Shown piece after piece: positions 1 through 26,098 of a stretch of 64,000 bases of DNA (its first letter is position 1; the number at the start of each line of letters is the position of its first letter). Both the position numbers and the translations under genes were made by a program. The notes beneath the pieces were generated by a model. It saw only the letters and a program-made list of their open reading frames with translations, was not told where the DNA came from and did not search any database. The DNA is from Candidatus Saccharimonadales bacterium. Lineage in GTDB: Bacteria > Patescibacteriota > Saccharimonadia > Saccharimonadales > 2-12-FULL-41-12. The stretch covers positions 5,770 through 69,769 of the forward strand of contig JBFIJM010000002.1 in the NCBI GenBank assembly GCA_041600715.1, written 5' to 3'.

Positions 1-1298
1 CAAACGCAGTAAACAACTTTAGACCTTCTTCCGGGCCAAATTACAGAGCATTTGTGATAGGAGGCAAGACCATATTCCAAGCCCCGTCATCCTCTGGATC
101 AACACCGAATGGTGATGTTGTAAATTTAACATTTGGATTGCCTGGGTCGCAAACATGGACAGAGCAAGATGTTTCAGGAGGTTCTTTCGGAGGAGAGCTA
201 CTTAGCCAAGTTCATGGCTTAAGATATTGGCTAAACCCTACTACATCAGCACTTCCAGGTGACTTAACAGGAGCAACAGAGATCACTGACTTTATTGTTT
301 TTAGAGGAAATCAAGGAGGAAACTTTGAGCAAAGCCAAACAATAGCATCAGCATCAGTCAACCCACAAAGGAAAGACAGATTTTCGGTGTTAAAATTAGG
401 AGCAGGAGCAAACGTAGAACTTGACGTAATATCAGGAGACTTTGCTAAGAACGACATAATGATCCTGATGAACGACAGTGCCTTTACAATAAAAGTAAAT
501 GACCTCTCTATAAACTCAGGAAACATCATGCTAGACCCTGTAGGGTTCTCAATGCTTAATGATGACTACATCCTAACACTAATTTATACAGTTGACGATG
601 TGAATGGATTGGTTTGGAAGGAGCTATGGAGAACTCCTCAGACTGTAGCAGTAGACTCTATAACAAACATAGAAATAGCTCCAACAGCAGTAAGTACTAC
701 CGAACTAAAGGATAATGCCGTTACAAACATTAAGATGGCAGACAACTCTGTAGATACACTAGAGATAGTTAATGATGCGGTAACTACTGATAAGATCCTA
801 GATGCTAATGTCACAACAGCTAAAATAGCAGATTTAAACGTCACAACAGACAAGATGGCTTTAGTTTCTGTGGACTCTACCATACTAGCAGACAACGCAG
901 TAACCACAGACAAGATAGTAGATGACGCTGTTACAGTGGATAAGCTAGGAGGTACTTTAACAAGAGGATTCTTCACGTTCTCAGTATCATGGGAATCAGC
1001 AACAGAGCTAGGACAAGTTAAGGCAGCCATACCATTTGATATGACTGTGGTTGAGGTTGTTGTTTCGGTAGCAAACACTATTGAGGCAACAGACACAGCA
1101 ACACTAATTTTAAAAGACCAATCATTAGCTTCTATGGGGCAATTCGATATTTCTGGAGGAGTTACAATAGGAAACGACTTCACACTTATTCCTGCTGTAA
1201 ACAACACCTTTGTTGCAGGAGAAGCAATGACATTTGAAACCCTAAAGACTACCGTTGGAGGTAGGGCTGAAGTAACTGTTATTTATGACTTAGTATAA
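1..1298 (+). CDS. tail fibre-like protein (5' end probably upstream of the window)
   Basis: ORF-track entry 54..1298 starts at GTG, but the same frame is open back to nt 3. Carries about nine tandem 10-aa repeats (x-x-D-x-A-V-T-T-D-K-I). First of three consecutive fibre-like genes. Confidence 0.6.
   Translation, partial: NAVNNFRPSSGPNYRAFVIGGKTIFQAPSSSGSTPNGDVVNLTFGLPGSQTWTEQDVSGGSFGGELLSQVHGLRYWLNPTTSALPGDLTGATEITDFIVFRGNQGGNFEQSQTIASASVNPQRKDRFSVLKLGAGANVELDVISGDFAKNDIMILMNDSAFTIKVNDLSINSGNIMLDPVGFSMLNDDYILTLIYTVDDVNGLVWKELWRTPQTVAVDSITNIEIAPTAVSTTELKDNAVTNIKMADNSVDTLEIVNDAVTTDKILDANVTTAKIADLNVTTDKMALVSVDSTILADNAVTTDKIVDDAVTVDKLGGTLTRGFFTFSVSWESATELGQVKAAIPFDMTVVEVVVSVANTIEATDTATLILKDQSLASMGQFDISGGVTIGNDFTLIPAVNNTFVAGEAMTFETLKTTVGGRAEVTVIYDLV
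655..950 (+). repeat. tandem 30-nt / 10-aa coding repeats (..AVTTDKI..)
   Basis: Protein reads NAVTNIKMADNSVDTLEIVNDAVTTDKILDANVTTAKIADLNVTTDKMALVSVDSTILADNAVTTDKIVDDAVTVDKL, a period of 10 residues. Confidence 0.7.
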
Positions 1299-3043
1299 TG
1301 GCTATTAAAAGATACCCAAATACAACTAGGATAGCCATCAAAAATGTAGGGGATCAAATCTCCATACAGATTGACGGCTCTCTTTCTTTTTATTACCCTC
1401 AATTTCTTGATGTTTTTTCAGACGAAAGTTCTTTTGTCACCATAACAAATCAAGGGGAGGATATAATACAGGCTCCTACAGTATGTTTTACTGAGCCCTC
1501 TGGTGTTTCGGTGGAAGAGCTACTACCTTTGATTAAGTGTGTGTTTCAGGTTGTACCCGTATTAGAGATAAATCTTAATGAGCTACAAGCCATACAAGGA
1601 GCAAACGCTCCTTCATCAGGGAATGTGTTTGCTACGATAGACGACTTGATTGCTGATGACCAAACAGCAGCAGAGGTTCCTTTTACTCCGGACGGAGACA
1701 TCACAGCAACAGACACTCAGGCAGCCGTAGTGGAGGTAAGGGATGATACAGATACCAAACTAGCATTAAAAGAAGATTCAGCCAATAAAGGTGTTGCCAA
1801 TGGATACGCTTCATTAGATGGGTCAGGAACAATCCCATTAAGTGAGATTCCAGCAGGAATAGCAGGAGGATTAACCTGGAAAGGTCTTTGGAACGCATCT
1901 ACAAACACACCTGCACTAGCAAGTGGAGTAGGAACAAATGGAGATACCTACGAAGTGTCTGTAGCAGGAGCCACTAACCTTGATGGAATTACTGATTGGG
2001 AGATTGGAGATTTAGCCGTATTTAATGGGGCTGACTCTACTTGGGAGAAGATTGACAATACCGACAAGGTAACTTCGGTGTTTGGAAGAGATGGAGTGGT
2101 TGTAGCAGTTTCAGGAGACTATACAGCAGCTCAAGTAACAAATGCCTTTGATAAGACAGCAGACGATACTGATGACATCACAGAAGGAGCTACCAATAAA
2201 TTCAACCAAACACACACGGGAGACGTTACAGGAGCTACAACCCTAACCATTGGGCCTTTAAAAGTGACCAATGATATGTTGGCAGGGAGTATTGATAACT
2301 CCAAGTTATTGACAGACCCATTAGCAAGAGCAAACCACACAGGGACTCAATTAGCCTCTACAATATCTGACTTTGCTGATACAGTAAGGAACACCATACT
2401 AACAGGTATTTCCTTTGCTTCAACAGCAACAATTACAGCCGCAGATTCGGTGTTAACTGCTTTTGGGAAACTACAGGCCCAGGTTACACTGAATAATGCA
2501 AAGGTGACTAACGCTACACACACAGGAGAGGTTACAGGAGCTACAGCATTAACAGTAGATAAAACAGCAATATCAAACAAAACATTAGTTGACGTTGATC
2601 CATTAGACCACTTTATAATTGGAGATGCTTCTGATACTGACAACCTAAAGAAGGTTCAGGCAGGAGACTTCCTTACGGGAAGCGGAACAATACTCGCTAC
2701 AATTACCGGTATCGACGCAACAGCAGTGGGAGACACAAACCTATACACTGTTCCAGCAGGCAAGGAGACCGTTGTTAGATTTGTGATTATAAGGCTACAA
2801 GCAATTTCAGGAGGCGGTGCAGTACCGAAAGTTGCTATAGGAACAAACGCAACAAGTTATGACAACATCGTGGCCCAACAGTCTTTAACCGGATTAACAG
2901 CTATAGATAATGCCTTCACTTTCGCTGTACAGGGTGTTTTTAAGGTGGCTCAGGCTGCTGAGATAATAAAATTGAGGGTTAACCCTGCTTCTGCAAGGAC
3001 AACCTACACAATAGATGTTGATTTAATTGGATACACTATATAG
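1298..3043 (+). CDS. tail fibre protein
   Basis: 581-aa ORF whose start abuts the previous stop. Has GYASLDGSGTIPLSEIP and two THTG(D/E)VTGAT-LT motifs of the kind seen in phage fibre proteins. Confidence 0.7.
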   Translation: MAIKRYPNTTRIAIKNVGDQISIQIDGSLSFYYPQFLDVFSDESSFVTITNQGEDIIQAPTVCFTEPSGVSVEELLPLIKCVFQVVPVLEINLNELQAIQGANAPSSGNVFATIDDLIADDQTAAEVPFTPDGDITATDTQAAVVEVRDDTDTKLALKEDSANKGVANGYASLDGSGTIPLSEIPAGIAGGLTWKGLWNASTNTPALASGVGTNGDTYEVSVAGATNLDGITDWEIGDLAVFNGADSTWEKIDNTDKVTSVFGRDGVVVAVSGDYTAAQVTNAFDKTADDTDDITEGATNKFNQTHTGDVTGATTLTIGPLKVTNDMLAGSIDNSKLLTDPLARANHTGTQLASTISDFADTVRNTILTGISFASTATITAADSVLTAFGKLQAQVTLNNAKVTNATHTGEVTGATALTVDKTAISNKTLVDVDPLDHFIIGDASDTDNLKKVQAGDFLTGSGTILATITGIDATAVGDTNLYTVPAGKETVVRFVIIRLQAISGGGAVPKVAIGTNATSYDNIVAQQSLTGLTAIDNAFTFAVQGVFKVAQAAEIIKLRVNPASARTTYTIDVDLIGYTI

Positions 3044-3045
3044 TT

Positions 3046-4431
3046 ATGGCAGAAAAAGTAAAATGTCAAGATAGCACAACGGGAAAAACCTTTTGGTCAG
3101 ACCAAGATTTAGATGTAATCATATCTGGGGATCCTGCTGTTGCCGCAAACACTTCAAAGGTAACAAACGCTACACACACAGGAGATGTGACGGGAGATAC
3201 AGCCCTAACGATAGCAAATAACGCAGTAACAAACACTAAAGCTGCTGACATGGCAGCTAATACGGTTAAAGTTAGAAATGTTGGGACAACAGGAAACCCA
3301 TCAGACTTACCAATGAGTCCTAGCACATTCTTGGCAAGACTGTCTTCAGGTAATATTGTTTCAGCTAATTCTGCTCAAGCCACAGACTTAATGGATCTAT
3401 TTACAGATTCACTTAAGGGATTAGCTCCTGCAAGTGGGGGTGGGACAGATAATTTCTTAAGAGCAGACGGAGTATGGGCTTCACCACCAGGAGGAGGAGC
3501 AGGAACAGGATCCCTGCCTGTTGCCCAAGCAATAAAAACAACATCACAAGGATTGACAATAACATCAACCAATATAGTATTTGATACTACTGAGGTTGAG
3601 AATGACCCTGCTGTACTTGACCATGACGCTGCAAATAAGGAGAGGATTTACTTAAATGATGTAGGATACTACTGGGGAACATTGGGTGGGGCATTAACAT
3701 CTACAGACAATGCAGATCAAACAGCCACATTTGAATTGTATAAAAATGATTCAACACTTCTATCTTCATTTAGTTTTACAGTTGACAAGCAATCGTCAGA
3801 GGTTTTTAGTAGAACCTTTGTTATACCTCCTTTAGTGGCAGGAGATTATTTAAACATTAAGATTAAAGTATCGAGTGGAACTTCTGTGACATTAAATTCT
3901 CATTGTAGAACCCAGATATTCAAAATGAATGGCTCTAAGGGTGATACAGGAGCTACGGGTGCAGGCTCAAATGTCATTACCCAGAAAGACGATGTTACAG
4001 TAGGAACAGTAATGGGAACCCTTAATTTTGAGGGAAATATGTCTCTTACTGACGAGGGTGGAAACAAAGTCACAATAACAAAAGGAGAGGCACAATCAAT
4101 TACGGGTGCAGCAACCTTATCAGCTACATCTTGGGCTATTGAGCGTAGATTTATGTTTGCAGGAACATCTAAGGTAGGCGCAATAACAAAAATATTTTTA
4201 AACTGTTGGAGAACAGCAGGAACAGGAACATTTGATTTAAGAATAGTTAATGCTGAGAACGCACAAGTTATATGTACAGCTACTTTACAAAGCAGTACTG
4301 ATGATGCAAATATTATTGATATGGGAACAATATCAAACCTACCAACAACAAGAACTATTTTTGAAGTTCAAGGACAAGTAAGTAGCGGAACAACAGTTGC
4401 CTTTTTAGGTGCAATATATTTTGAGAAATGA
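3046..4431 (+). CDS. tail fibre / receptor-binding protein
   Basis: 461-aa ORF with NATHTGDVTGDTALTI, FLRADGVWASPPGG and a short collagen-like GSKGDTGATGAGS stretch. Confidence 0.65.
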   Translation: MAEKVKCQDSTTGKTFWSDQDLDVIISGDPAVAANTSKVTNATHTGDVTGDTALTIANNAVTNTKAADMAANTVKVRNVGTTGNPSDLPMSPSTFLARLSSGNIVSANSAQATDLMDLFTDSLKGLAPASGGGTDNFLRADGVWASPPGGGAGTGSLPVAQAIKTTSQGLTITSTNIVFDTTEVENDPAVLDHDAANKERIYLNDVGYYWGTLGGALTSTDNADQTATFELYKNDSTLLSSFSFTVDKQSSEVFSRTFVIPPLVAGDYLNIKIKVSSGTSVTLNSHCRTQIFKMNGSKGDTGATGAGSNVITQKDDVTVGTVMGTLNFEGNMSLTDEGGNKVTITKGEAQSITGAATLSATSWAIERRFMFAGTSKVGAITKIFLNCWRTAGTGTFDLRIVNAENAQVICTATLQSSTDDANIIDMGTISNLPTTRTIFEVQGQVSSGTTVAFLGAIYFEK

Positions 4432-4949
4432 TGAATAAGTATAAAATATGGTGCGTAACTGACCAAAAGTGGGAAGAAGTCATATCTTCAACCACGCCTA
4501 CAGAATGTCCTATTGATTCACTTCATACAGTAGATTCTAATAGCGCAGTTATAATTGAAAAAGAAATCAAGAAACTTGATGGATCTCCTGAAAACTTAAC
4601 TCTTGATGAGTATAAGTCTATGAAGTATGGAGACATTGACAGAAAGACAGGAGAGCTTATTAGCCAAGGGTTTACCTATCTTTCAAATCAATTCAGCCTA
4701 TCATCAACGGCACAACACAATCTTAATGGCTTAGAAATTAGCAAGGACTTGCTAACATACCCTGTTGAATATAATACAATAGATGATACAGGTGTCTATC
4801 AAGTGGTTGACGCTACCGATATGCACAATATGTATTTAGCAGCTTTAACTGCAAAGAAAGGACACTTAGATAGTGGGTCTGCATTAAAATCACAAGTAAG
4901 GGTATCTACAGATAAAGCAGGAGTTGATGCAGTAATAGACAATAGATAA
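4428..4949 (+). CDS. hypothetical protein (fibre assembly/chaperone role possible from position only)
   Basis: 173-aa ORF with ATGA overlap to the upstream fibre gene. No motif recognised. Confidence 0.55.
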   Translation: MMNKYKIWCVTDQKWEEVISSTTPTECPIDSLHTVDSNSAVIIEKEIKKLDGSPENLTLDEYKSMKYGDIDRKTGELISQGFTYLSNQFSLSSTAQHNLNGLEISKDLLTYPVEYNTIDDTGVYQVVDATDMHNMYLAALTAKKGHLDSGSALKSQVRVSTDKAGVDAVIDNR

Positions 4950-5218
4950 TGGAAACTAATGGATGTGGAGGCAAGGGAAGCTGGATAAAAGTACCTAACT
5001 TTATCTTTGAAGCTTCTTGCAACAAGCATGACATTGGATACGGAATAGGAGGGGATGAGGCAAGGAGATTTGAATGTGACGCTAAATTTTTAGTAATGAT
5101 GTTGAAGGATACATATAGAGTGCCAGACAGGATATTAAGGTTTTATTATCAGTGGTGGGCATTTACATACTTTTTCGGTGTTAGAATAGGAGGTAAAAAA
5201 TATTTCAATTATGATTGA
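4949..5218 (+). CDS. small phospholipase A2-like protein
   Basis: 89 aa. GCGGKG, SCNKHDIGY and FECDAKF mirror the CGxGG calcium loop, the CxxHDxxY catalytic dyad and the CxCD motifs of secreted PLA2. Confidence 0.5.
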   Translation: METNGCGGKGSWIKVPNFIFEASCNKHDIGYGIGGDEARRFECDAKFLVMMLKDTYRVPDRILRFYYQWWAFTYFFGVRIGGKKYFNYD

Positions 5219-5921
5219 CGTAAACGAACTTAAAATATTCATTGACTTTGTTGCCAACAAAGAGCAATCAGGTACAGCTTATTCTATAGATCAGCTCAAT
5301 ATCGCCTTCCAAGCAGCTAACATTGACTTGTTTAAGTTGAGGTATGGACTTCCTGAAGAGTATGCCCCTGGGATGCCTCTTCCTAGAATGTCTTATGAGG
5401 TAACACAGAAAATTAAAGATGACTTAAGGTCAGTAAAAGAGAAGGTAATCATTCCTGTTGATAGTTTCGGTATTATGACATTACCGAATGATTACGTGCA
5501 TAAAACAGCAATAGAATATGTTAAGGTTACTAATGACCCGGACTGTGATGTTCCGGAAGTATTATACAAGTCGGTTGAGATCATCGACGATGACAAGTGG
5601 AGCGAGAGACTATCGAACACCATCAAGAAACCGACACTTGATTTTCCAGTCTGCAACTTTTTAAAGGACAGCATTAGGTTTATGCCTAAGAGCCTCAGAG
5701 AGGTCGAATTAAGCTATCTGAGAGTCCCAAACAAGCCTGTATGGGGATATGTGTTCCAAAGTGGAATTGAGGTGTACAGCCCAATTAATAGCGTTCAGTT
5801 TGAATGGAATGAGATATTGTTCACAGATGTTGCAAAACTTGTATTGAATTATCTATCTATTAACTTGAAAGATGTCGAACTTTACGAGGCTATGGCTGAG
5901 TATAAAGCAAAAGGAATATAA
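5211..5921 (+). CDS. hypothetical virion/tail protein
   Basis: 236-aa ORF overlapping the previous gene by 8 nt, inside the structural block. Confidence 0.65.
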   Translation: MIDVNELKIFIDFVANKEQSGTAYSIDQLNIAFQAANIDLFKLRYGLPEEYAPGMPLPRMSYEVTQKIKDDLRSVKEKVIIPVDSFGIMTLPNDYVHKTAIEYVKVTNDPDCDVPEVLYKSVEIIDDDKWSERLSNTIKKPTLDFPVCNFLKDSIRFMPKSLREVELSYLRVPNKPVWGYVFQSGIEVYSPINSVQFEWNEILFTDVAKLVLNYLSINLKDVELYEAMAEYKAKGI

Positions 5922-5924
5922 CAG

Positions 5925-6551
5925 ATGGCACTTACTAAAAAAGAAATATCAGAGTTCGTTAGAGATATAATGTCTGGTGGAGACCCCACTAGGGAGGGTA
6001 AGTTCCATGACACAATTATTTGGAAAGCTGCCGACATTGTGTTGGGAGGACTTATCCAAGAGGCTATGTGGAAGGATCAGCAGAGTAATGGGTACGAGCT
6101 TAATGGAAGCTTCCTGTCTACTGTTTCCGAGAAGGTAATGTTGGATGAGGAGAGAGGAGAGAAGTACAGTAAATTGCCACATTCGGTAATATCCCTAAAG
6201 GAGAACAGAGGTCTTCACAGGGTATCTGAGGTTGGTAACATAGACAATGCTTTTACACAGACACCTAATGGTGGGCATGATGTGTTTTCAATACTTGATG
6301 CACACTACCTTAATAGCCATACAGAGTTCTATCAGGAGGGAAATAAGATATACTACCGAAACATCGGGTCAACTGTTGAGAAGGTCTTAATCAAAGCAGT
6401 ATTCTCTATAACAGGATTGGATCCTGATGCACCAGTAGCTATTCCTTCTTCATTGGAGGATATGTTTATTGAGAGAATCACCGAGAGACTGAGGATTCAG
6501 CAGATAACTCCTGAAGACAAGAGTAATGACCAAAACCCTAATGTGAGATGA
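5925..6551 (+). CDS. hypothetical virion/tail protein
   Basis: 208-aa ORF, tightly packed on the same strand. Confidence 0.65.
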   Translation: MALTKKEISEFVRDIMSGGDPTREGKFHDTIIWKAADIVLGGLIQEAMWKDQQSNGYELNGSFLSTVSEKVMLDEERGEKYSKLPHSVISLKENRGLHRVSEVGNIDNAFTQTPNGGHDVFSILDAHYLNSHTEFYQEGNKIYYRNIGSTVEKVLIKAVFSITGLDPDAPVAIPSSLEDMFIERITERLRIQQITPEDKSNDQNPNVR

Positions 6552-7327
6552 GCCAAGATACAAACGGAATAGTAAACCTAGACTACGTTGTGAACCTTGT
6601 TCTAATGGACTTGGACGACTACTCTATGACTAAATACAAGAAGTTCCTACAGTATACCATAATGGGATACCAAGACCTCAACCTGTACACAATGCAGAAT
6701 GTTAAAGTGGCCTACCTTCCTGTGAAAGCAAATAAAACCGTAGACCTACCTATTGATTTTGTAGAATACACAAAGATCGGATATGACTCAGGAGGAAGTG
6801 TTGCTGTGTTAGGTCACAACGAAAACCTAATGCTACCAAGGCTTACTGATGATTGTGGGAACACAACCAATGAGAATGAAGGGGGATGCGAGGCTGACAG
6901 CCTAATCTTCCCGAACTATGGATACTACTTTGCTCCTCACTACCGAAATGGTCAGTTTGTAGGAGAATTGTACTCTGGTATTGGAGATGGTCAAACAGAC
7001 GGTCAGTACAGAGTTGATTTAGACAGAAGGCAAATAGCCTTTAATAGCGACCTAGCAGCGACCACTATTATCCTAGAGTACAAATCGTCAGGGGTAGGTG
7101 GAGATGGTTCTACTAACATCCCTAGACAATGCGTAGAGGCACTAAGGTCATACGTACATTGGCAAAGAAAAAGACATAACGACAAAACAGCAAGAAACGA
7201 AAAGATTGCGCTTCAGCAAGAATACTATATCGAGTTTGAAAAATTAAGAGACCTTGAGTTTTCATTTACTTATAATGAGTATCTTGACAGCAGAAGAAGA
7301 ACATACAGCTCTATACCTAAACGATAA
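6548..7327 (+). CDS. hypothetical virion/tail protein
   Basis: 259-aa ORF with a 4-nt overlap to the previous gene. Confidence 0.65.
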   Translation: MSQDTNGIVNLDYVVNLVLMDLDDYSMTKYKKFLQYTIMGYQDLNLYTMQNVKVAYLPVKANKTVDLPIDFVEYTKIGYDSGGSVAVLGHNENLMLPRLTDDCGNTTNENEGGCEADSLIFPNYGYYFAPHYRNGQFVGELYSGIGDGQTDGQYRVDLDRRQIAFNSDLAATTIILEYKSSGVGGDGSTNIPRQCVEALRSYVHWQRKRHNDKTARNEKIALQQEYYIEFEKLRDLEFSFTYNEYLDSRRRTYSSIPKR

Positions 7328-7332
7328 TACCT

Positions 7333-10300
7333 ATGCCACAGTATTTAGAAGACAAAATACCTAACAATGGAATGAATCGTGACGATGAAAATCGTTTAGT
7401 AGAAAAGAATGAATTTCGATTTGCATTAAATCTACGAGGAGGTTCTTCAGATGATGACAACATTGGGACTATTGAAAACGTAAAAGGAACAACTGAAGTA
7501 ACCTTTGACCTTCCAAAAGGAAACAATAAAGTCATTGGATCTCATGGAGACCAAACAACCAACTCCAATTTCTTCTTCCTATTTAACAGCTTAGGTAATC
7601 ACACCATCTACAGATACTTCCCTGACACAAGAGAGATAAGAATACTCTCTAGGGATAGTCGGTGGAACTTTTCTGAATACGACCTTATTAACGACATAAA
7701 TGTTATTGATGGGGAGCTTCTATACTTTAGAGACATAGAGAACCCACCAAGGAAGATAAACATCAACAAGGCTGATAATGACAACCCTGACACTAGACAG
7801 GTGTTCCATTGGTACTTAGGGGATGACTATTTGGATGGAGAGACTACGCTAGACCTAGTGTTTACTGTTCAACCGGAAAGATATTCAACTGCCCAGGTTC
7901 CTCAGATCACAGAGACATTTACAGTATTAACTCCTGCTCCTGATGAAGGAAAGCCTGAGATTGCTAGAGACCTTACTGAGCAAATAAACAATGGGGTAGC
8001 TAATGGCTCTATAGCTTTAGACATAGAAGCTGAGTCGTGTGGGGAATTTGTTATAATCACAACAACTAGCCCTGACTATTACACTATCACAGCTTTGAAG
8101 GGAGGGTTCAACACTGTAATGGTAGTCCCTCAAAACCACTACATAGGATACGCTGAGAGAACTATTGATGTTATTAAGCATCCTCCTCATTGTGAGCTAA
8201 AGGCTCAAATCAAGACTGACGAGAAGTTTAATCGAAACTACCTATCAAGAAAGGTGTTTCAGTTTGCAGCTAGATATATTTATGATGACGACGAGAAGTC
8301 AACAGTTGACCCTTACTCTATCCATATATTCAATGACAGTCAATGTCTTCAGTTCTCAACACCTACACTGAACAACTATATTGAGATTGACCTTTCGGTG
8401 TTCCCTGAACTTCTTGAACCACTTGAGCTTCAGACTATTAGACAGATAGAGTTGTTTGTCCGTATAGGAGAGCTTGGAAATTGGAAGTCAATAACCACGT
8501 TAGAGCAGTATCAGTTTGTAGATACTGCTAACCAGCATTATGACTTTTACAACAACGGAAGGTACAACCCTGTAGATCAAGCAGACTTTGTTCGTCCTTT
8601 TGATTTGGTTCCAATTAGGACTAAGAATATGGAGATTGCCAAGAACAGACAGTTTTTCGGTAATAACTTAGAGGGGTATGATAATGTTTGTACTGATGCT
8701 AAATTAGACATAGATTACGATGATGTTGAGGCTAGGATAAAACCTCCTACATACACCATAAAAGGAAGGATAGATATTAGAGCTGCGTTTAATGGTGGGT
8801 TCTCTGGGGCATTAAAAGACCATCAGCCAATATGGAAGGATAATATTGGTGGAGATGATGGGCCAGTAACAAACCCTACAGTTTGGGGAGGCATTGATAA
8901 TAAGCCATTCAAGGACTTTGATATGGAGGATATAGCCGCAAAGACAGGTCAAATACTTCCTCTGGGTGGATTTGTTGTTTATTTAGCTGGCACAGACTAC
9001 TATGGAATTTCTAAGCAGAAAACAGGTTATTCAGGACTATCTGATGTTGGACAGGATGACAACGGGGTGTTTGTGGGTAGCGGTGGTAGTTACGTGGATC
9101 ATGTTCGGGAATACATAATTGAAGAAGGGACATACGGAGAGCTTTTTAGTACGTTTGAAATATCGAATGTTCCTGATGGATGGTACTACTTAAGGGTTGC
9201 CTCTCACCAAACGGTACAAGGAGATTTGGATAGCGGAGAAAGAGGGTATCAAAGAACAAGCACAAACGCCTTTCAATTTGTAAATCCAAACTTTCTTAGT
9301 GGAGGGTTTACATATATAGAGGAGGCAGGGTCAAGGAATGAGATATTGGTTCATGTTTCAGCAGGAAACATATCAAACCTACAAAACATAGGGATAAGCA
9401 TAATGGATCTTAGTTATGCAAACAAATTGGGAAGCACCAAGATATTGTCTGGGTATGTTGTTGATAGCGACATAACAGGGAGCATAAGTACTTACTCTGA
9501 AGCAATAGCCGACACAAGGATTTCAAGAGCCCTAGTAACATTTGACAAGTCAGCAGCGACACACCACCATTTCAATACTGTTGTAGGTGGTCAGCCGATT
9601 CCTTCTGACCCAATAAATGATTGGGCTTATGACTATTGGCTTCAAGAACAGGAGCCTGGCGCAGCGACAGAGACAGATACTAGGACTGATGGAACAATAA
9701 CCGACCATAATGGATTTTTCTTTTTTGCTTCATCACAATCAATGTTCAAATTTCCGTTCATTTCAGATGGAAAGTTAAGTATTGAGAACATAAGACCTGC
9801 AAACGACCCTTCCTCAATAGGTCAGTACAATGGGGTTCTTTATTCTCAGCAAGGAGGAACAAACAGCATAAAAGAGAACAGTTTTGCCGTTGTAGCAAGT
9901 AGAGCCCCAGCAGGAGCAAGCAACCTGAATAGAACTAAGGTCACTGGTGTAATAGAGGATCAAAACTCTTTAGGAATACCTAAAGCATCAATCATATCAA
10001 GTAGAACTGCTACTCATGAAACAGATTCAACTGGAGAGTTTGAGTTCTTCCATTACGGAATACTTGACCGTTCAGGAGTCATTGGAGGAGCAGGAGTTTC
10101 AGGTGCTTCAGGTGCTTTTAAAACTCTCCTATTCCCTTCTCAGTCAGCAGGAACCTGTAGTGCTAGTTTCTCAGATAGCGAAATCTACAACTTCAACTTT
10201 GACTACCCTAACTGGTATGTAAACAACTTCTCTCCTGATTTAACTCAAGGGTTTAGTGCTCTAGTGAACTCTGCTCCATTAACATTGGATATTGCAAAGT

Positions 10301-12642
10301 TTATAGGAGACTCATCAGGAATGAAGACTATTAACGCCTTCAAGAGAGGTTTTGATGGGCAGTTGGGTATTATCTACTACGACAGAGGAATGAGGAGTGG
10401 ATCTGTTAACACCGAAGAAAAGCTAAAGATGCACATCCCATTTTATTCTGAAAAGGATGAAGACGGAAACCCATCTCCTCCAGGTGTTCCTGTTGTGTCA
10501 TGGGAGGTTAGACATAGACCACCATCTTGGGCTACTCATTGGCAGTGGGCTAGAACTAGGAATTTAACCGTTGGTAATTACCTTCAGTGGGCGACTGATG
10601 AAGTCACATACACCTTAGATGATGGGGTCACTCCATCTACCTTCCAATCAGGAAGCAGGGTGGTTTTGGGAGTATCCAACATAGCAACATTAAGAAATAA
10701 ATTCCCAAGCCTTGACTACGAATTAGGTCTTGATGACCCTGGAATGAGAGTTAGGTTTATTAAAAGGTATGACGGGCAAAGATACACCGAGTATCTTGAC
10801 TACCCACTACTAGAGAACTCTTCTCTTGGGCTTGTTATAGAGAAAGACTTTGCTCAGGGAGAGATAAAGGCAGGAACTCTTTTTGAGGTTTACAATGAGT
10901 TGCTAGACATTGAGGAAGAGATTTATTATGAGTTTGGAGAATGTTTCGAGGTAAAGCAAAATGTTTCAGGAATAAAATATCATGCAGGGCTGGCTCAAGA
11001 TCAAAACCCATTACTTCCGGCTTCAATACCAGCCACAGGAACCTTTAGGACGGGTGATGCCTACTATAGGCTAAGAAGTATGCCAAGAGCATTGGTTAAT
11101 GAGATTTCTTATATTGATGATGATGCAGTGTCAGACTTTTACCGTTCAGAGGTAGAGTCTATTGGACGAGCTAACGGGATAAATCCTGATGCCGCACAAT
11201 TATGGAAGCCTAATCAAATTAGACATAGTGGGAAGTATATTCCTGATTCTAAGGTGAACAACCTGAGTCAGTTCATATCTGACAGATTCCAACCACTACC
11301 TATAGAGTTTGGAGCTATTAATAAGCTACAGTTGGCTGCAAATGTTCTTATGTCAATACATGAGTTCAGATGGGTGTCCAACTATATCGAGGAAGCTATT
11401 GTTAGAAAGCAAGCAGGAGACGATGATATTGTGGCTACAACCTCTGTATTTGGTTCATTCAGAGCAGCAAAGCAAATAACGGGTACGGTGAACCAAGAGT
11501 CTGTAAAAGAGTACAGGGGAGCTATATGGGCATTTGACCTCAACAAAGGAGAGGTTTATCGTTGGGCTGCTGACGGCCTAACAGCCATATCTCAGTACAA
11601 GATGATTAATTACTTCTCCGACAAGTCTGAAGAAATACTGAGAAACAAGGATCTTGGAGAAAAGCCGTTTAGAGCTATCGGTGTTTACAACTCAAGACAT
11701 GATGAGTACATCCTTTCATTTGGAGAGATAGCTAAGAAGCCAACCGAAGATGTCCCTGTCGCACCACCACTACCTGAGTTTAGGTTTGCGCTTGATGTGA
11801 ACAACTCAGAGATAATTGAGGAGGCTTCAGACAACGCTCTATACACTATAAACGGAAGCAAGGAGTCAGGAAGCGTCTTCATACTTGATGAGGCTACAGC
11901 TCCAAACCTAAAGGGAGTGCAGATAGATAATCAGATAGGATCTGAAGGAGACCTTCTTGTTAAGGTTAAGAGGTTAGACGGAAGTATCGAGGAGGTTGTT
12001 AGACTAGAAGAGGGCCAGGGTATTGCAGACTTCAATATTCAAACAAGAAAGTTTAACCCTAAACCAAGAACTAACGATGCTCAGACTGTTCCGGCTCCCC
12101 AAGGGCAGATTCTTGTCTCAGGAGAGACTGTTGCCTTTAGTGAGAGGATTAACAAGTGGACTACGTTCTACTCGTTTAGACCTGAGATGTTCGGTATTAT
12201 AAGTTTAGAGATGATAGGATTCTCTGAAGGGAGATTATGGATACATAACGACAACGTAATAAGAAACAACTTCTACGGTGTTCAGTACCCTTCTCAGATA
12301 GAAGCCCTATTCAATCAAGAGCCTGGACAGGTGAAAGTATTTGAAGCTGTAGGTATTGAGAGCTACCATCCATGGCACGTACCATCAATGAAGACTCCTA
12401 ATGGAATGGAGACTCAAATGGTAGCAGGAAGGTTTGTTAGAAGAGAGGATAGCTACTTCTCTCCTGTTATGCGAGATATTAATACACCGAACTTTGGGAA
12501 TCAATTTAACGAGGCGATCCTTAATGGAAGGCAGCTAAGAGATAGAACAGCTACGGTATTGTTTCAGAATGATGAGACAGGAGAGGTTGTGCTATTCGCA
12601 TACAGCATGAAGAGCACCTTATCACCAAGACATCAAAAATGA
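7333..12642 (+). CDS. very large structural protein (1769 aa), function unknown (tail tube/nozzle analogue possible from position)
   Basis: Uninterrupted 5.3-kb ORF in the structural block. No enzymatic motif recognised. Confidence 0.8.
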   Translation: MPQYLEDKIPNNGMNRDDENRLVEKNEFRFALNLRGGSSDDDNIGTIENVKGTTEVTFDLPKGNNKVIGSHGDQTTNSNFFFLFNSLGNHTIYRYFPDTREIRILSRDSRWNFSEYDLINDINVIDGELLYFRDIENPPRKININKADNDNPDTRQVFHWYLGDDYLDGETTLDLVFTVQPERYSTAQVPQITETFTVLTPAPDEGKPEIARDLTEQINNGVANGSIALDIEAESCGEFVIITTTSPDYYTITALKGGFNTVMVVPQNHYIGYAERTIDVIKHPPHCELKAQIKTDEKFNRNYLSRKVFQFAARYIYDDDEKSTVDPYSIHIFNDSQCLQFSTPTLNNYIEIDLSVFPELLEPLELQTIRQIELFVRIGELGNWKSITTLEQYQFVDTANQHYDFYNNGRYNPVDQADFVRPFDLVPIRTKNMEIAKNRQFFGNNLEGYDNVCTDAKLDIDYDDVEARIKPPTYTIKGRIDIRAAFNGGFSGALKDHQPIWKDNIGGDDGPVTNPTVWGGIDNKPFKDFDMEDIAAKTGQILPLGGFVVYLAGTDYYGISKQKTGYSGLSDVGQDDNGVFVGSGGSYVDHVREYIIEEGTYGELFSTFEISNVPDGWYYLRVASHQTVQGDLDSGERGYQRTSTNAFQFVNPNFLSGGFTYIEEAGSRNEILVHVSAGNISNLQNIGISIMDLSYANKLGSTKILSGYVVDSDITGSISTYSEAIADTRISRALVTFDKSAATHHHFNTVVGGQPIPSDPINDWAYDYWLQEQEPGAATETDTRTDGTITDHNGFFFFASSQSMFKFPFISDGKLSIENIRPANDPSSIGQYNGVLYSQQGGTNSIKENSFAVVASRAPAGASNLNRTKVTGVIEDQNSLGIPKASIISSRTATHETDSTGEFEFFHYGILDRSGVIGGAGVSGASGAFKTLLFPSQSAGTCSASFSDSEIYNFNFDYPNWYVNNFSPDLTQGFSALVNSAPLTLDIAKFIGDSSGMKTINAFKRGFDGQLGIIYYDRGMRSGSVNTEEKLKMHIPFYSEKDEDGNPSPPGVPVVSWEVRHRPPSWATHWQWARTRNLTVGNYLQWATDEVTYTLDDGVTPSTFQSGSRVVLGVSNIATLRNKFPSLDYELGLDDPGMRVRFIKRYDGQRYTEYLDYPLLENSSLGLVIEKDFAQGEIKAGTLFEVYNELLDIEEEIYYEFGECFEVKQNVSGIKYHAGLAQDQNPLLPASIPATGTFRTGDAYYRLRSMPRALVNEISYIDDDAVSDFYRSEVESIGRANGINPDAAQLWKPNQIRHSGKYIPDSKVNNLSQFISDRFQPLPIEFGAINKLQLAANVLMSIHEFRWVSNYIEEAIVRKQAGDDDIVATTSVFGSFRAAKQITGTVNQESVKEYRGAIWAFDLNKGEVYRWAADGLTAISQYKMINYFSDKSEEILRNKDLGEKPFRAIGVYNSRHDEYILSFGEIAKKPTEDVPVAPPLPEFRFALDVNNSEIIEEASDNALYTINGSKESGSVFILDEATAPNLKGVQIDNQIGSEGDLLVKVKRLDGSIEEVVRLEEGQGIADFNIQTRKFNPKPRTNDAQTVPAPQGQILVSGETVAFSERINKWTTFYSFRPEMFGIISLEMIGFSEGRLWIHNDNVIRNNFYGVQYPSQIEALFNQEPGQVKVFEAVGIESYHPWHVPSMKTPNGMETQMVAGRFVRREDSYFSPVMRDINTPNFGNQFNEAILNGRQLRDRTATVLFQNDETGEVVLFAYSMKSTLSPRHQK

Positions 12643-12941
12643 CAACATACATCTACTACATAATGACGGTAATAGGGATAGGGTACTTCGTTACCCTGTC
12701 AGACCTAATGAAGCCTTTTAGAATGGCTGTGTCCGAATTTAATCAAGACTTAGAGTTCCCCTTTAAGTGGATCGTCGATAAGTTTGATGGAGTGGTAAAC
12801 TGTATCTATTGCTGCTCTTTTTGGGTAGGATTAGGAGTTTACGTTGGCATCTATGAAGTTCTCAACATACATACGGTGTTCAGTGCTTTTTCGGTATTAG
12901 GTGTAATCTATGTGGTCAAGAATATCTTTCCTAAGCATTAA
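12639..12941 (+). CDS. small integral membrane protein (DUF1360-like CxxC-W motif)
   Basis: 100 aa, three hydrophobic segments, NCIYCCSFWVGLG motif. 4-nt overlap with the 1769-aa gene. Confidence 0.6.
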   Translation: MTTYIYYIMTVIGIGYFVTLSDLMKPFRMAVSEFNQDLEFPFKWIVDKFDGVVNCIYCCSFWVGLGVYVGIYEVLNIHTVFSAFSVLGVIYVVKNIFPKH

Positions 12942-15762: not shown

Positions 15763-18700
15763 ATGGCTACAGACAGCAAGACAAGATTGTTATACGATGC
15801 AGTTTCTAAGGATTATGATTTAGGAACATTTGAGGAGTTTGAGGCAAAACTACAGTCTCCTGATAAAAGGCAGGCTTTCTTTGATGGGGTTGGTGCTAGA
15901 TATAACCTTGGGTCATTTGAAGAATTTGAATCCAAGGTAAAAAAAAAAGAAGAAACTCAACCAAGAGATTTTTCAGCTCTTGCAGAAGGTATTGGGAGAG
16001 GTGTCGAAGCTCGTTCAAAAGCTATTCAAGAAGAACAAAAGGAAGTCCCACAAGAAGCCCAGCCTTTTCCAGAGCTTAGTGAAGAGAGAGACCTATCAAC
16101 TCCTGCTGCAAAACCTTCAAGGAGTATGTCTGGACTTGATTCACCTATTGAGGAAGTTGTCGAGGCTCCGGGTGAAGATTTACTTCCAACAGAAGTAGCA
16201 CTACCGTCAGAAAGCACATCAGTACAAGCCCCAATAATCCCTGAAGAACAAGCATTAGAAGGTGCAGACCCATTATTCATGGGGGGTGAGATGCTACGAA
16301 AGAAAGAAGAGGATATTGTTTCTAAGAGACAACAGAAGCTAAGAGAGGAGACGTTCAAAAGAACTATGAATATTGAGGGTCGAAGAGGATTCCCGATAGA
16401 AGAGGGCGACATCCCTAAGACTCAAGAGGAGCTTGACATCCTTAGTGGAGCAGCCAAGAACTACGAGATACTAATAACATCCAAACTAGAGGAGCACGTT
16501 CCTGAAGATTTAAAGTTAAAGGCTGCTTATGTTGAGAGAGAAAGAGAAATTATTAATCAAATAAAATCAGGAGAACTAAGTAAGGAAGATTCTACTAAGG
16601 CTAGGGCAAAACTTATTGAGATAAATAAGCAGTTGTTGTCGAGCGACAACAATAAGAAGCTGTTTAATCCTGTTACAGGAGAAACAGTGGATCAAGATAA
16701 GGCTCCTGTAGAAGCCATTGAGTATGATGGTATGGTTAAGAATCTTGTTGAGAACAAGTATTCAGACATAGAGGACGCATATCAAGCATCAGAAAAGGCT
16801 ATACACAAGTATGATTACTATGACGAGGAATTAGACAAGCCTTCTGGATACCTAAACTTAACATACAGAGACTTATCTGACCCTATAAAGAGAGCATCTC
16901 TACTAGCTAGTAATCAGTTCGTTGACGAGCAGATACTAGATAAATCCAAATTATTAAAGGAGAGATGGATAGACTCTAAGGCTAATGTAGAGGCTATTTC
17001 AAGAGCTATTATGGTGAATGAAGACCCATCTCAGATTGAGAGAGGTTTCGGTGGTGGAGCAGGATTTACTGAGAGCGTAGAGAAGGGGTTTATGGAAGCC
17101 ATTGATATGGGTGAGCAAGTAACGTCTACTGAAGGAGACTTTGCTACTCGGTTTGTCGGTGTTGTAAGAGATGCAGGAAAGGATAAGATTCTTACTAAGG
17201 CTCAAGTAGCTAACACCGAACAAGCGTTTGCTGAAAAATTAGGGTACGGAGTAGGAGCTTCTATTCCTATTATGGCAGAGATAGCAGTGACTACTGCCTT
17301 AACAGAAGGTATTGCTACTGAGGCTGTTGTAGCTAAAAACATAAAGAAAATCAAGGATGCTTTCGGAACATCTAAGGCAGGAAAGCTATTTGGGAACACT
17401 ATAGAGCAAGGAGTAAAAGGATATGCTTCTTTTGCCCCTACATCAGAGACAGGAGCCACAGGAGTTGGTGAGGGTGTTGCCCAGGGGGTGATGGATACCT
17501 TTCTACCTGAGAAGTTGATTGGAGGAAAGTACGGAAAGCTCCTTAACTACATAATAAGAACCGTTGGTGGGGGTACAGGGGAGACCATACAAGAGGTTTC
17601 AGGACAATACTTTGATGCACTAGCTGAAAACGGATATGATGCAAGAGGAGCGTTCTATGACGCTTTTGGAAGAACCCCTGAAGAGAGATGGGAGAACCTT
17701 GCGTTGATAGGGACCACATCATTAATGTTCTCGGGTGTATTCAATTCTGCCCGATTGGTTATGACTAAGGATGCCCTAGAGGAGGAGATTGAAAATGGTA
17801 ATATTCCGGAAGAAGATATTCCTGCTGCTCAGGAGATCATTAATACCATGGAGGAGAAGATTGATAGTGAAGAAGCTGCTGACACTCCAAAGGTTGCTCC
17901 TGTTGTTGAGGAGGAGGATGTTGCTGAGGAAGTAGCTCCTACCGAGGAGATACAGGGAGTTGTAGATGAGATTAAAGAGATTGATGCCAAGCTAGATGAG
18001 TCTAAGGGTGTGATGAAGAGTATTTTCCGTTCCACAAAGAAGGAGAAAGAACTTGAGGAATTATACAGTAAGAGACGTAAACTAGATGATAGGCTGTGGA
18101 AGGAGTTTGGTGAGGTCGCAACAAGTGAAGATTTTGATGAGGTTGACCGTTTAGCATTAGAGCTTGAAGAAGGAAAGGAGTCGGGTAAATGGTCTGAAAA
18201 AGAGATTGAACAGAAAAATAAAGAGTTATGGGATAAACGATACGAGCTTAGGGATTCGGTATTAGAAAGAACCATTAAGGAGAAAAAATCCGAACCTAAA
18301 GCAGAAGCACCAAAAAAGAAACCAACTAAAAAAACCAAAGAAGATGCCGTTCAAGAGCGAAAAACAGAGGAGGTTCCTGTACAGCCAGAAGCCCGAGTTG
18401 GCGAAGCAGTGGAGCCAGGAAGAAAAGTACAAGAAGAGGAAGTCGAACCTGTCAAAGAAAAAGAAGCCGAAGAAGCCAGAGGTGTGGTCGAGCCTGGTGA
18501 GGTCAAGGATATAGAAAGAAGAAGAAAAGACAGTTTGCATATTGTAACACAAGCAGACTTAGATAGAGGAGAAGATGTAGGAATTACAGAGAAGGATGGT
18601 CTATTTAGAGGAGACTATTATAGTAGTGCTGATGAGTATGGTAATGTACGAATAGCAAGTGTTATTGGTACTTTAAAAGAAGTACAAGATCATCTTAATG

Positions 18701-24628: not shown

Positions 24629-24885
24629 TGGCACATATAGCAAACATATACACAAACACCGACCAACCTACGGTTGAAGCTTTAAACACTAGGCTATGGG
24701 ACTTGTTATGCTTAGACCCAACTCATTCATCCACGACTTATTCAATAATTCGTGAGAACGCACCGCTTTACGGCATTGTAATAGATGCTGAGGTTGCAGG
24801 AGATTTAACTCCCGATGAAAACTTAAACGTAATACAGGTTCCATCCGACGATCCGGGGTGGTTCCCAGAAGAGCCGGAGGAATAA
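24628..24885 (+). CDS. hypothetical protein
   Basis: 85-aa ORF with TAATG overlap to the previous gene. Confidence 0.55.
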   Translation: MAHIANIYTNTDQPTVEALNTRLWDLLCLDPTHSSTTYSIIRENAPLYGIVIDAEVAGDLTPDENLNVIQVPSDDPGWFPEEPEE

Positions 24886-24887
24886 AA

Positions 24888-25334
24888 ATGCAAAGACTAA
24901 CTAGCATATCGTCATTTATCACCGAAGATGTATTCGGATGGATTGTTTTCTTAATAGGAGCTCTCCTAGCCTTTGTAGCACCAATAAACAACCTACTACT
25001 CTTTACAGGGTTTGCAATAGTCCTTGATGTGTTTACGGGCGTATGGGCATCAAGAAGCAGGGGGGAAACCTTCAACTCAAAGAAGTTATCAAGATCATGG
25101 GCAAAGATGGTTCTATACCCAGGGGGAATCATATTCTCCTTTTGGGCAGAGAAATTAGCTCCGGAGATACCCTTTGTCAAAGGAGCCACCTACCTACTTA
25201 TCGCAATCGAAGGCAAGAGCCTAGAGGAGAACTTCAGCGACATACTAGGATTCTCAATGATGAAGTACATCAGGGTATTCATAACTAGAGGAAGAAAAGG
25301 ATTACTAGAGGAACTTAACAATAAAGAAAAATGA
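24888..25334 (+). CDS. holin (phage_holin_4_1-like)
   Basis: I prefer the ATG at 24888, 2 nt after the upstream stop, over the ORF-track start at 24858. Has 3-4 TM segments and VLDVFTGVWASRSRGETFNSKKL, a typical holin family 4 core. Lies two genes upstream of the endolysin. Confidence 0.65.
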   Translation: MQRLTSISSFITEDVFGWIVFLIGALLAFVAPINNLLLFTGFAIVLDVFTGVWASRSRGETFNSKKLSRSWAKMVLYPGGIIFSFWAEKLAPEIPFVKGATYLLIAIEGKSLEENFSDILGFSMMKYIRVFITRGRKGLLEELNNKEK

Positions 25335-25636
25335 AAGAAAATCTACTACTGCTAGGGAAAATTGCAGGGGCAGCTATGGCTCTAATATCCATTTGTGCCT
25401 TCTTTGGCAAGCCATTCCTTGAGGATTATGTTCACGAACAGATAGACCTTAAGTTTGAGGCTGTTAAAGCTGAAGCTGAGGCCAATAAGAGGCCAAGTTT
25501 CCGTAGTCTATTAAGCAAGTCAATGAAGGTTGATGAGGATGAGGTTCACGTAAGGATCGGTGATATGTATAAACAGGAGGGAGACATTAAGAAAGAAATC
25601 AAATACTACCACCCATCCACACTACTAGATAACTAA
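25331..25636 (+). CDS. membrane-anchored lysis-cassette protein
   Basis: 101 aa with a single N-terminal TM, lying between holin and endolysin. Confidence 0.55.
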   Translation: MKENLLLLGKIAGAAMALISICAFFGKPFLEDYVHEQIDLKFEAVKAEAEANKRPSFRSLLSKSMKVDEDEVHVRIGDMYKQEGDIKKEIKYYHPSTLLDN

Positions 25637-25638
25637 TT

Positions 25639-26097
25639 ATGAAAATATCAGCACACTTATCATTAAAAGAAGTAATCAAGTCTAACACTGCTACAAGGCA
25701 TGGAATAGATAATACCCCAACAGATGAGCACCTAGCTAATCTTAAAGCGGTAGCAGAGAACGTATTTGAACCCCTTAGAGAATGGCATGGAAAGCCAATA
25801 GGTATCAGCTCTGGATACAGGTCTAAGGCTCTTAATACTGCCATCAAGGGAAGCAAAACCAGTCAGCATTGTTTTGGTCAGGCGCTTGATATTGATGCTG
25901 ATATGTTCAACAATGGTATAACCAATGCTGACATCTTTAATTGGATCAAAGATAACCTTGAGTGGGATCAAATGATATGGGAATTTGGTACAGATGATGA
26001 ACCTAATTGGGTTCACGTATCCTTTGTTACCGACAGACCAAACAGAAAGAAACTAACTAGAGCCTGGAAAGGTGGAAAATACACTAACTACGAATAG
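25639..26097 (+). CDS. endolysin, peptidase M15 (zinc D-Ala-D-Ala / L-Ala-D-Glu peptidase family)
   Basis: SGYRSKALNTAIKGSKTSQHCFGQALDID matches the SGYR...S.H..G.A.D core of Peptidase_M15_3. Confidence 0.8.
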   Translation: MKISAHLSLKEVIKSNTATRHGIDNTPTDEHLANLKAVAENVFEPLREWHGKPIGISSGYRSKALNTAIKGSKTSQHCFGQALDIDADMFNNGITNADIFNWIKDNLEWDQMIWEFGTDDEPNWVHVSFVTDRPNRKKLTRAWKGGKYTNYE

Positions 26098-26098
26098 T

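Follow-up and report, generated by a model that had tools for sequence, protein, structure and literature searches.

A gene at positions 4949..5218 (+) of a 64,000-nucleotide stretch of contig JBFIJM010000002.1 (assembly GCA_041600715.1; the whole stretch is hereafter called the window) encodes an 89-aa protein which, on profile-level homology and a predicted fold, is a genuine, stripped-down relative of the bacterial and fungal group XIV secreted phospholipases A2 (PLA2s). The window is a tailed-phage genome with a GC content of 40%. The reading favoured here, at a probability of roughly 0.4, is of a late-expressed, Ca2+-dependent, minimal group XIV-type PLA2 that would act on the lipids of the envelope after the holin has opened the membrane.

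Homology, fold and conserved residues of the 89-aa protein

The open reading frame (ORF; 4949..5218, +; ATG start, 89 aa, METNGCGGKGSWIKVPNFIFEASCNKHDIGYGIGGDEARRFECDAKFLVMMLKDTYRVPDRILRFYYQWWAFTYFFGVRIGGKKYFNYD) encodes a protein of 10.5 kDa with an isoelectric point of 8.8 and 21% aromatic residues, in which neither a signal peptide nor a transmembrane (TM) segment was found by a hydropathy-window test, which is not a dedicated signal-peptide predictor. The initial annotation of this sequence had singled out the ORF for three PLA2 hallmarks, and the motifs GCGGKG (residues 5-10), SCNKHDIGY (23-31) and FECDAKF (41-47) are present in the order claimed, within the following elements:

4958..4978 (+): Gly-rich loop N4-G5-C6-G7-G8-K9-G10, the presumed Ca2+-binding loop
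5015..5041 (+): S23-C24-N-K-H27-D28-I-G-Y31, with the predicted catalytic His, the Ca2+-ligand Asp and the Tyr
5069..5089 (+): F41-E-C43-D44-A-K-F47, with D44 as the predicted second catalytic Asp and a clade-specific C43

Comparison with a homologue of the same length and 78% identity (L079) gave 14, 12 and 39 differences at the first, second and third codon positions, corresponding to 27 synonymous and 20 non-synonymous codon changes; the + frame of the ORF is the coding frame and is under purifying selection. This comparison uses L079 as its single reference, homologue L017 having been left out for an indel that places it out of register.

As a single sequence, the 89-aa protein matched the Pfam family PLA2G12 at E=0.031 (residues 2-49 aligned, under the gathering threshold of 34) and PF09056 (Phospholip_A2_3) at E=0.046 (14.8 bits against a gathering threshold of 29.4), together with PHROG 6098, a function-unknown family; no match was found among PDB sequences, and no NCBIfam family was matched. 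Database searching returned 44 homologues, two of them already bearing PF09056. Among 32 aligned homologues, PF09056 was matched by 24 (best E=3.8e-7), the parvoviral-type family PF08398 weakly by seven (best E=0.012) and PLA2G12 weakly, also by seven, while PF07087 (DUF1353) was matched by none at E<=0.1. Precomputed PF09056 annotations are present on most of the wider family. Profiles built from progressively larger sets of homologues matched group XIV enzymes of known structure as follows:

32-sequence profile against Streptomyces violaceoruber PLA2 (SvPLA2; 1FAZ): E=4e-5
32-sequence profile against Tuber borchii PLA2 (4AUP): E=1.5e-4
86-sequence profile against 4AUP: E=4.3e-11
86-sequence profile against 1FAZ: E=4e-10
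86-sequence profile against 8K1W: E=8e-6
86-sequence profile against 7YGK: E=9e-6
193-sequence hidden Markov model (HMM) against SvPLA2 (reference sequence identical to 1FAZ): 41.6 bits, alignment from P52 to the last residue

No canonical secreted PLA2 (sPLA2) was found at E<=1 in the 86-sequence profile search of the PDB. The disulfide-rich scaffold of the canonical sPLA2s is absent from the 89-aa protein, in which the N-G-C-G-x-K-G loop is present and the PLA2G12 match is sub-threshold. Membership of group XIV and PF09056 is therefore a matter of transitive, profile-level homology, since it is the homologue profiles and not the single sequence that produce the matches.

Structure prediction, proposed in the initial annotation as a check, returned a PLA2 fold. 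The AlphaFold2 (AF2) model from the deeper alignment (predicted local distance difference test, pLDDT, 84.5) contains three helices at residues 21-33, 37-55 and 61-81, with low confidence over residues 1-10, which hold the Gly-rich loop (mean pLDDT 54). In a Foldseek search of the PDB the top four matches were the group XIV PLA2s 4AUP_B, 4AUP_A, 1FAZ and 8K1W, with a query-normalised TM-score (TMq) of 0.73 for 4AUP and 0.67 for 8K1W and a root-mean-square deviation of 1.9 A over 67 columns for 1FAZ, and nothing beyond these group XIV enzymes was found above a probability of 0.6. The first AF model gave the same picture, the superposition TMq across both models ranging from 0.62 to 0.73. Against the viral models of BFVD the top matches, with TMq values of 0.65-0.81, included A0A8S5LC67, 'Phospholipase A2 [Siphoviridae sp.]', an uncultured Caudovirales protein (TMq 0.81) and the 'phospholipase A2 domain protein' of Vibrio phage 1.097.O. 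A long tail of further BFVD matches consisted of densovirus and parvovirus VP1 PLA2 domains, with TMq values of about 0.5 and probabilities up to 0.97.

Residue conservation was counted over 193 aligned homologues, in which mean column identity is otherwise about 23%:

C6: 193/193
C24: 192/193
H27: 192/193
D28: 192/193
G34: 190/193
G7: 189/193
P16: 189/193
Y31: 181/193, the remaining 12 being Phe
G5: 180/193
F47: 177/193
D44: Asp in 177/193, Asn in 16/193
N4: 175/193
K9: 157/193
G10: 152/193
C43: Cys in 47/193, Ala in 128/193

The CxxHD signature occurs in 148 of 149 family representatives, and C24-x-x-H27-D28-x-x-Y31 aligns to C61-A-R-H64-D65-F-G-Y68 of 1FAZ, with D44 aligning to D85. On this alignment H27 is the predicted catalytic His, D28 the predicted adjacent Ca2+-ligand Asp and D44 the predicted partner Asp, the catalytic Asp of FECDAKF thus being residue 44 and not residue 43, a correction of the numbering. 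The N-G-C-G-x-K-G segment may form the Ca2+ loop, a role put conditionally because the loop lies outside all profile alignments to group XIV structures and is modelled with the lowest confidence; N4-G5-C6 matches D43-L44-C45 of SvPLA2 by position only, outside the HMM local alignments. Both members of the first group XIV Cys pair have counterparts, C24 being aligned to C61 and C6 corresponding to C45 by position, and C6 and C24 presumably form a disulfide. No counterparts of the second SvPLA2 Cys pair (C96/C107) were found in the family, which thus lacks the four-Cys, two-disulfide feature of group XIV.

Of the three hallmarks initially described, the Gly-rich loop and CxxHDxxY are conserved, and the 'Cys-Asp' reduces to the Asp alone because C43 is limited to a sub-clade (47/193). 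The same Cys, in the form 'RFECD', is shared between the clade of the window protein and a sub-clade with an expanded loop of the form 'NGCGPxWxPxWxK..LFxWFFEASCNKHD' (P0036; L046, L047, L051; L069-L072, L074), which occurs in Marinobacter, Pseudomaricurvus and Marinomonas genomes.

The initial annotation had named a lack of PLA2-profile matches and an unconserved His-Asp dyad as results that would speak against it; the homologue profiles match 4AUP and 1FAZ at the values listed above, and the dyad is retained in all but one of the aligned homologues at each position. The PLA2 reading is supported by the profile homology to 1FAZ and 4AUP together with the predicted fold and the near-invariant His-Asp and downstream Asp.

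Family distribution and genomic context

An exhaustive profile search of 1.84 billion representative sequences recovered 1,573 clusters (50% identity) with E<=1e-3, of which 358 reached E<=1e-10; nearly all of the best 150 are 80-200 aa in length. The roughly 270 relatives listed have lengths of 81-300 aa, and neither a recognisable second domain nor a fusion to a structural protein was found among them; by the hydropathy-window test an N-terminal signal or TM segment is present in only 2 of 149 representatives. Among 50,697 GenBank phage records, no match was obtained by megablast with positions 3000..9000 of the window, by tblastn with the 89-aa protein or by tblastn with the downstream structural protein, and tblastn with a distant member and the family consensus gave Vibrio phage 1.097.O as the sole match, in two accessions of one genome. 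This rarity in cultured phages against 1,573 metagenome clusters reflects a strong cultivation or host bias. Matches in genomes are prophage-like and all from diderms (Marinobacter, Pseudomaricurvus, Marinomonas, Desulfobacter, Balneolaceae, Bacteriovoracaceae and Planctomycetota). Automatic annotation in GenBank and UniProt already gives some phage members the name 'phospholipase A2', for example AUR87155.1 and A0A8S5LC67, and a literature search found no experimental characterisation of a phage family member.

The family's common setting is a late operon, usually at the boundary between tail-fibre genes, the PLA2-like gene and lysis genes. Among the more distant members of 110-140 aa, the gene order at L002 is DUF4376, holin, PLA2-like gene (with a 4-nt overlap with the holin), an 89-aa ORF and a GH108 endolysin; at L009 it is DUF4376, PLA2-like gene, a 121-aa ORF and a lysozyme; at L005 it is DUF4376, two small ORFs and the PLA2-like gene; and at L006-8, as at L037, a holin gene is followed by the PLA2-like gene. 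DUF4376 lies directly upstream or at most four genes upstream in L002, L005, L009 and L070. One further member has a tail-fibre gene on one side and, on the other, a series of small ORFs, the last of which encodes an XhlA-like protein. In L017, whose PLA2 homologue is 69% identical to the window protein, the third and fourth genes downstream are homologues of the window genes 26072..26347 and 26536..26907, which belong to the lysis cassette described below.

Since pooled Pfam and PHROG scans of neighbouring genes were too heterogeneous, the association was assessed through enrichment of TM proteins in 47 non-redundant IMG/VR loci and through phmmer searches with known lysis proteins. At the first, second and third positions downstream, 33%, 20% and 21% of the genes encode small TM proteins, compared with about 5% elsewhere in the loci (odds ratio 6.4 for the three downstream genes, Fisher p=3e-10), and one is found at most three genes downstream in 19 of the 47 loci; on inspection, holin-like, i-spanin-like and lipoprotein sequences are among them. 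In six IMG/VR loci an endolysin homologue follows at a distance of 2 to 5 genes, and several endolysin PHROGs are present among the downstream neighbours. The lysis-gene association is family-wide and statistical, and does not hold at the window locus.

Two other neighbours were observed. Small ORFs follow the PLA2-like gene in L011/L012, L079 and L080, one of them encoding DUF5675 (PF18925), a family encountered repeatedly, on unrelated contigs, only a few genes away from PLA2-like genes (L080 1395..1838; single members of pooled neighbour sets) and that may be an unrecognised lysis-related family. At 131..1141 of L006/L007/L008, a reverse transcriptase gene (RVT_1) precedes the pair of holin and PLA2-like genes by two genes, and may be part of a diversity-generating retroelement at the tail-fibre end.

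Within the window, the PLA2-like gene is flanked on both sides by genes of the tail and virion:

54..1298 (+): tail-fibre gene 1, PHROG tail fibre / minor tail match
1298..3043 (+): tail-fibre gene 2, PHROG tail fibre / minor tail match
3046..4431 (+): tail-fibre gene 3, no match, N-terminal repeat style as in the other two
4428..4949 (+): DUF4376-like tail-fibre-associated protein, 173 aa; matches to PF14301 at E=4.6e-4 (under the gathering threshold) and to phrog_1348 'tail fiber protein' at E=4e-5
5211..5921, 5925..6551, 6548..7327 and 7333..12642 (+): downstream structural genes

The upstream gene (4428..4949) and the PLA2-like gene share the base at 4949, with which the TAA stop of the former ends and the ATG of the latter begins, and the downstream gene starts at 5211, 8 nt ahead of the PLA2-like stop (5216-5218). 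These overlaps, at 4949 and 5211..5218, bear out the translational coupling between fibre and virion genes that had initially been described, and the placement inside a tail module was likewise correct for the window genome, with fibre genes on the 5' side and virion structural genes on the 3' side. Three of the downstream genes match PHROG 'virion structural protein' families (phrog_14543, phrog_13977 and phrog_14478), one of the products being 1,769 aa long. The fibre proteins of 54..1298 and 1298..3043 contain short tandem peptide repeats of the N-A-V-T-T-D-K-I type, which match several tail-fibre families of PHROG. The gene of the 1,769-aa virion protein is followed immediately, inside the structural operon, by 12639..12941 (+), which encodes a 100-aa protein with two TM segments and a weak phrog_781 match. 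Within the structural region, 15763..23454 (+) encodes a giant protein of 2,563 aa, the C-terminal ~900 residues of which match the very large, function-unknown families phrog_14770 and phrog_616, with residues ~2091-2472 matching a DarB-like antirestriction family (phrog_10089); this may be an ejected protein. A phage-encoded GroEL-type chaperonin is present at 33751..35340 (-; phrog_5725, E=6e-139). The host is probably a Bacteroidota diderm, because the large terminase subunit (59626..61692) shares 27-33% identity with those of Flavobacterium, Cellulophaga and Tenacibaculum podophages.

The lysis cassette of the window phage occupies 24858..26907, about 20 kb downstream of the PLA2-like gene:

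24858..25334 (+): holin, Phage_holin_4_1 E=6e-8
25331..25636 (+): 101-aa TM protein of the lysis cassette
25639..26097 (+): M15 endolysin, Peptidase_M15_3 E=1.4e-16, phrog_894 endolysin
26072..26347 (+): 91-aa TM protein of the lysis cassette
26331..26618 and 26536..26907 (+): overlapping spanin-like pair at the end of the cassette

Of the last two, 26331..26618 encodes 95 aa that include a coiled coil as well as a TM segment at the N-terminus, and 26536..26907 encodes, in another frame, 123 aa in which the N-terminus is signal-like and the C-terminus carries a TM segment; neither has a Pfam or PHROG match, and together they resemble a spanin pair or a unimolecular spanin.

A possible role in phage exit, and its alternatives

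The initial annotation had raised the possibility of an unusual entry or exit factor, and of the two an exit factor fits the data better. The protein retains a PLA2-like core, comprising three predicted helices, His27, Asp28, Asp44, the Cys pair C6/C24 and the Gly-rich loop; relative to group XIV, it has lost the second disulfide together with the N-terminal helices and the signal peptide. Under the favoured exit role, it would be made with the late structural operon and accumulate in the cytoplasm, silenced there by sub-micromolar Ca2+ and a reducing environment. On permeabilisation of the inner membrane by the holin it would reach the periplasm and the medium alongside the signal-less endolysin, and there become activated, converting envelope phospholipids to lysophospholipids and fatty acids, the outcome being help with the break of the outer membrane or the dissolving of membrane debris. 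The analysis shows the homology, fold and residue conservation, the lack of an export signal, the late-operon position and the family-wide enrichment beside lysis genes; from these we infer the catalytic activity, the Ca2+ and redox gating, the holin-dependent release and the membrane target. The diderm nature of all genome hosts recovered speaks for the exit role, as do the precedents of TtaP and of the proposed phage WO cassette, both compared below. The protein is probably catalytically active, judging by the concentration of conservation on the catalytic, Ca2+ and Cys-pair residues.

Several observations weigh against an exit enzyme. The gene sits among the tail-fibre and virion genes of the window, with which it is coupled in translation, and lies far from the holin and endolysin, adjacency to which is seen in some relatives and not here; the arrangement of L014 is that of the window, with the same structural-gene order. 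In Vibrio phage 1.097.O the PLA2-like gene sits between the terminase and the head completion adaptor, other members lie beside T4-type tail genes or head genes, and among the pooled neighbours no fixed Pfam or PHROG partner was found, each family occurring in at most 2-3 members. A position upstream of lysis genes is also partly a restatement of a position downstream of fibre genes, because lysis cassettes often follow fibre genes. There is no obvious gap for such an enzyme in the window phage, since it has spanin-like candidates of its own, and Asn takes the place of D44 in 8% of members. For TtaP, a Salmonella Typhi protein compared below, no biological or envelope phenotype was found (PMC11525133).

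Two more specific forms of an exit or lipid-attacking role were considered and set aside. Replacement of spanins in the window phage was discarded because of the spanin-like pair in its lysis cassette, so that the enzyme would be an accessory there and not a spanin substitute. A secreted host-virulence PLA2, like streptococcal prophage Sla, was rejected, as the protein lacks a signal peptide and its family is found in environmental diderm hosts.

An unlikely alternative, though one that the local gene order invites, is a virion-associated entry enzyme, in which the PLA2 would be carried on the tail or fibre, or ejected, and would locally hydrolyse phospholipids of the host outer or inner membrane at adsorption and DNA ejection by analogy with parvoviral VP1u. 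In the window and in L014 the gene lies between fibre genes and the three 'virion structural protein' genes and overlaps both neighbours, upstream neighbours elsewhere are often tail-fibre or DUF4376 proteins, and the gene has its terminase-adaptor position in Vibrio phage 1.097.O. Extracellular Ca2+ and oxidising conditions could equally activate a virion-borne enzyme, and the densovirus and parvovirus VP1 domains are among the fold matches (probability up to 0.97), at a TMq of only ~0.5. However, tailed-phage virion enzymes and parvoviral PLA2s are normally domains of structural proteins, the 89-aa protein has no attachment or fibre-like domain, its ~270 listed relatives are short (81-300 aa) and without structural-protein fusions, and several members lie between a holin and an endolysin. 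The support for entry is limited to gene position in the window genome, and the family-wide context runs against it, such that entry is if anything disfavoured.

It is similarly improbable, in our estimation, that the gene encodes a late accessory ('moron'-like) lipid enzyme that clears receptor-bearing outer-membrane vesicles and debris and so spares the progeny from being trapped, remodels membranes late in infection or excludes superinfection. Such a gene would be expected at operon boundaries, the usual insertion place of accessory genes, and its position is highly variable among relatives of 64-80% identity (the window and L014 as against L017, L011, L079 and L080). The lack of a fixed partner gene, and the contrast between the 1,573 metagenome clusters and the one cultured phage found by tblastn, point the same way. 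However, positive evidence for any such role was not found, and the enrichment beside lysis genes is more specific than would be expected of random insertion.

A catalytically dead PLA2 fold with a function in structure or binding, such as that of a chaperone for lipid or fibre, is considered very unlikely. The gene occupies a place in which small tail-fibre assembly proteins are often encoded, and both the sub-threshold Pfam score of the 89-aa protein and the Asn at D44 in 16/193 homologues would be compatible with lost activity; against this, conservation is near-absolute exactly at C6, C24, H27 and D28 despite a mean column identity of ~23%, and retained chemistry is argued from this concentration on catalytic, Ca2+ and Cys-pair residues. 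Chance motif resemblance in a short ORF, to which the weak single-sequence Pfam matches (E=0.03-0.05) and the empty single-sequence PDB search might have pointed, is effectively refuted by profile E-values down to 4e-11, a fold search returning only PLA2s, purifying selection and hundreds of homologues.

As a tentative and rather doubtful extension to the whole family, signal-less mini-PLA2s may be widespread in tailed phages of diderms, activated by Ca2+ and oxidation after the holin acts and dismantling the phospholipids of the outer membrane or of debris, or alternatively borne on the virion at entry where the gene sits in a tail operon. To our knowledge, no step in the lysis of Gram-negative hosts by phages is less well understood than the disruption of the outer membrane, and the solutions we know of are spanins and one cationic peptide (disruptin), none of them enzymatic. 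An exit role, if true, would add a lipid-hydrolysing arm to Gram-negative phage lysis, distinct from spanins and disruptin, and a PLA2-like phage family of more than 1,500 clusters beside holins and endolysins could represent an enzymatic route through the outer membrane or a lipid-active virion component. Being tiny, with one presumed disulfide and no signal peptide, the protein should be easy to express and assay, and family members are candidate outer-membrane-permeabilising partners for endolysin-based antibacterials. The immediate value for the window is a confident annotation as a 'PLA2-like late protein' with a putative role.

Comparison with known systems

With the group XIV PLA2s (SvPLA2 1FAZ/1LWB, TbSP1 4AUP and Saccharothrix PLA2 8K1W) the window protein shares the catalytic C-x-x-H-D-x-x-Y helix, a partner Asp carried by the helix that follows, and a C-terminal helix of the form 'A-x-x-Y-Y-x-A-V-x-x-x-G', the two being alignable from SvPLA2 P52 to the last residue with C24 equivalent to C61. 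It differs in having neither a signal peptide nor a propeptide, in missing about 40 residues from the N-terminus of the mature enzymes, in the replacement of the D-L-C Ca2+ segment by the conserved N-G-C-G-x-K-G loop and in the absence of the C96/C107 disulfide, two conserved disulfides (four Cys) having been given as the rule for group XIV (PMC11525133). Group XIV PLA2s are secreted by cells, whereas the window protein is phage-encoded.

The parvoviral VP1u PLA2 (PF08398) is likewise viral and combines an HD dyad with a Gly-rich Ca2+ loop, to which the conserved dyad and presumed loop of the window protein correspond. The VP1u enzyme is, however, a domain of a capsid protein that is exposed at entry, whereas the window protein is free-standing, and the likeness in fold is at the superfamily level only (TMq ~0.5). 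Of the same form are AUR87155.1 of Vibrio phage 1.097.O and A0A8S5LC67, which are, like the window protein, small stand-alone proteins of tailed phages, their function being assigned by annotation only; the Vibrio phage protein is ~29-38% identical to family-member queries over part of its length, and its gene lies by the terminase and head adaptor.

Lipid-active enzymes have also been placed in phage lysis by other routes. For phage WO, a lytic cassette of a patatin-type PLA2 with a holin-like protein, adjoining the tail module, has been proposed, and is itself a proposal (PMC9203015). The shared concept is that of a lipolytic enzyme acting with holin and endolysin, the patatin fold being unrelated to that of the window protein. 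The mycobacteriophage enzyme LysB, an established lipid-targeting lysis enzyme, cuts the mycolyl-arabinogalactan linkage; it embodies the same concept of attack on an outer lipid layer, with an alpha/beta-hydrolase, cutinase-like fold unrelated to the window protein. Unlike the LysB- and WO-type lysis cassettes, the PLA2-like gene of the window is not adjacent to a holin or endolysin.

TtaP (STY1887) of the Salmonella Typhi typhoid-toxin islet (DUF1353/PF07087) belongs to a different sequence family, as none of the 32 members of the window family matches PF07087, and it is chromosomal, toxin-linked and without Cys, whereas the window family has an invariant Cys pair. It is, however, a signal-less, 125-aa distant relative of group XIV that retains the His/Asp and the further Asp, has been demonstrated experimentally to be a PLA2 acting on phosphatidylethanolamine and phosphatidylglycerol, and is cell-associated (PMC11525133). 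TtaP is encoded beside the phage-type muramidase TtsA, and a role in outer-membrane perturbation has been proposed for it (PMC11525133). The family described here gives this orphan Salmonella PLA2 a phage context, and TtaP is the closest characterised functional analogue found for the window protein.

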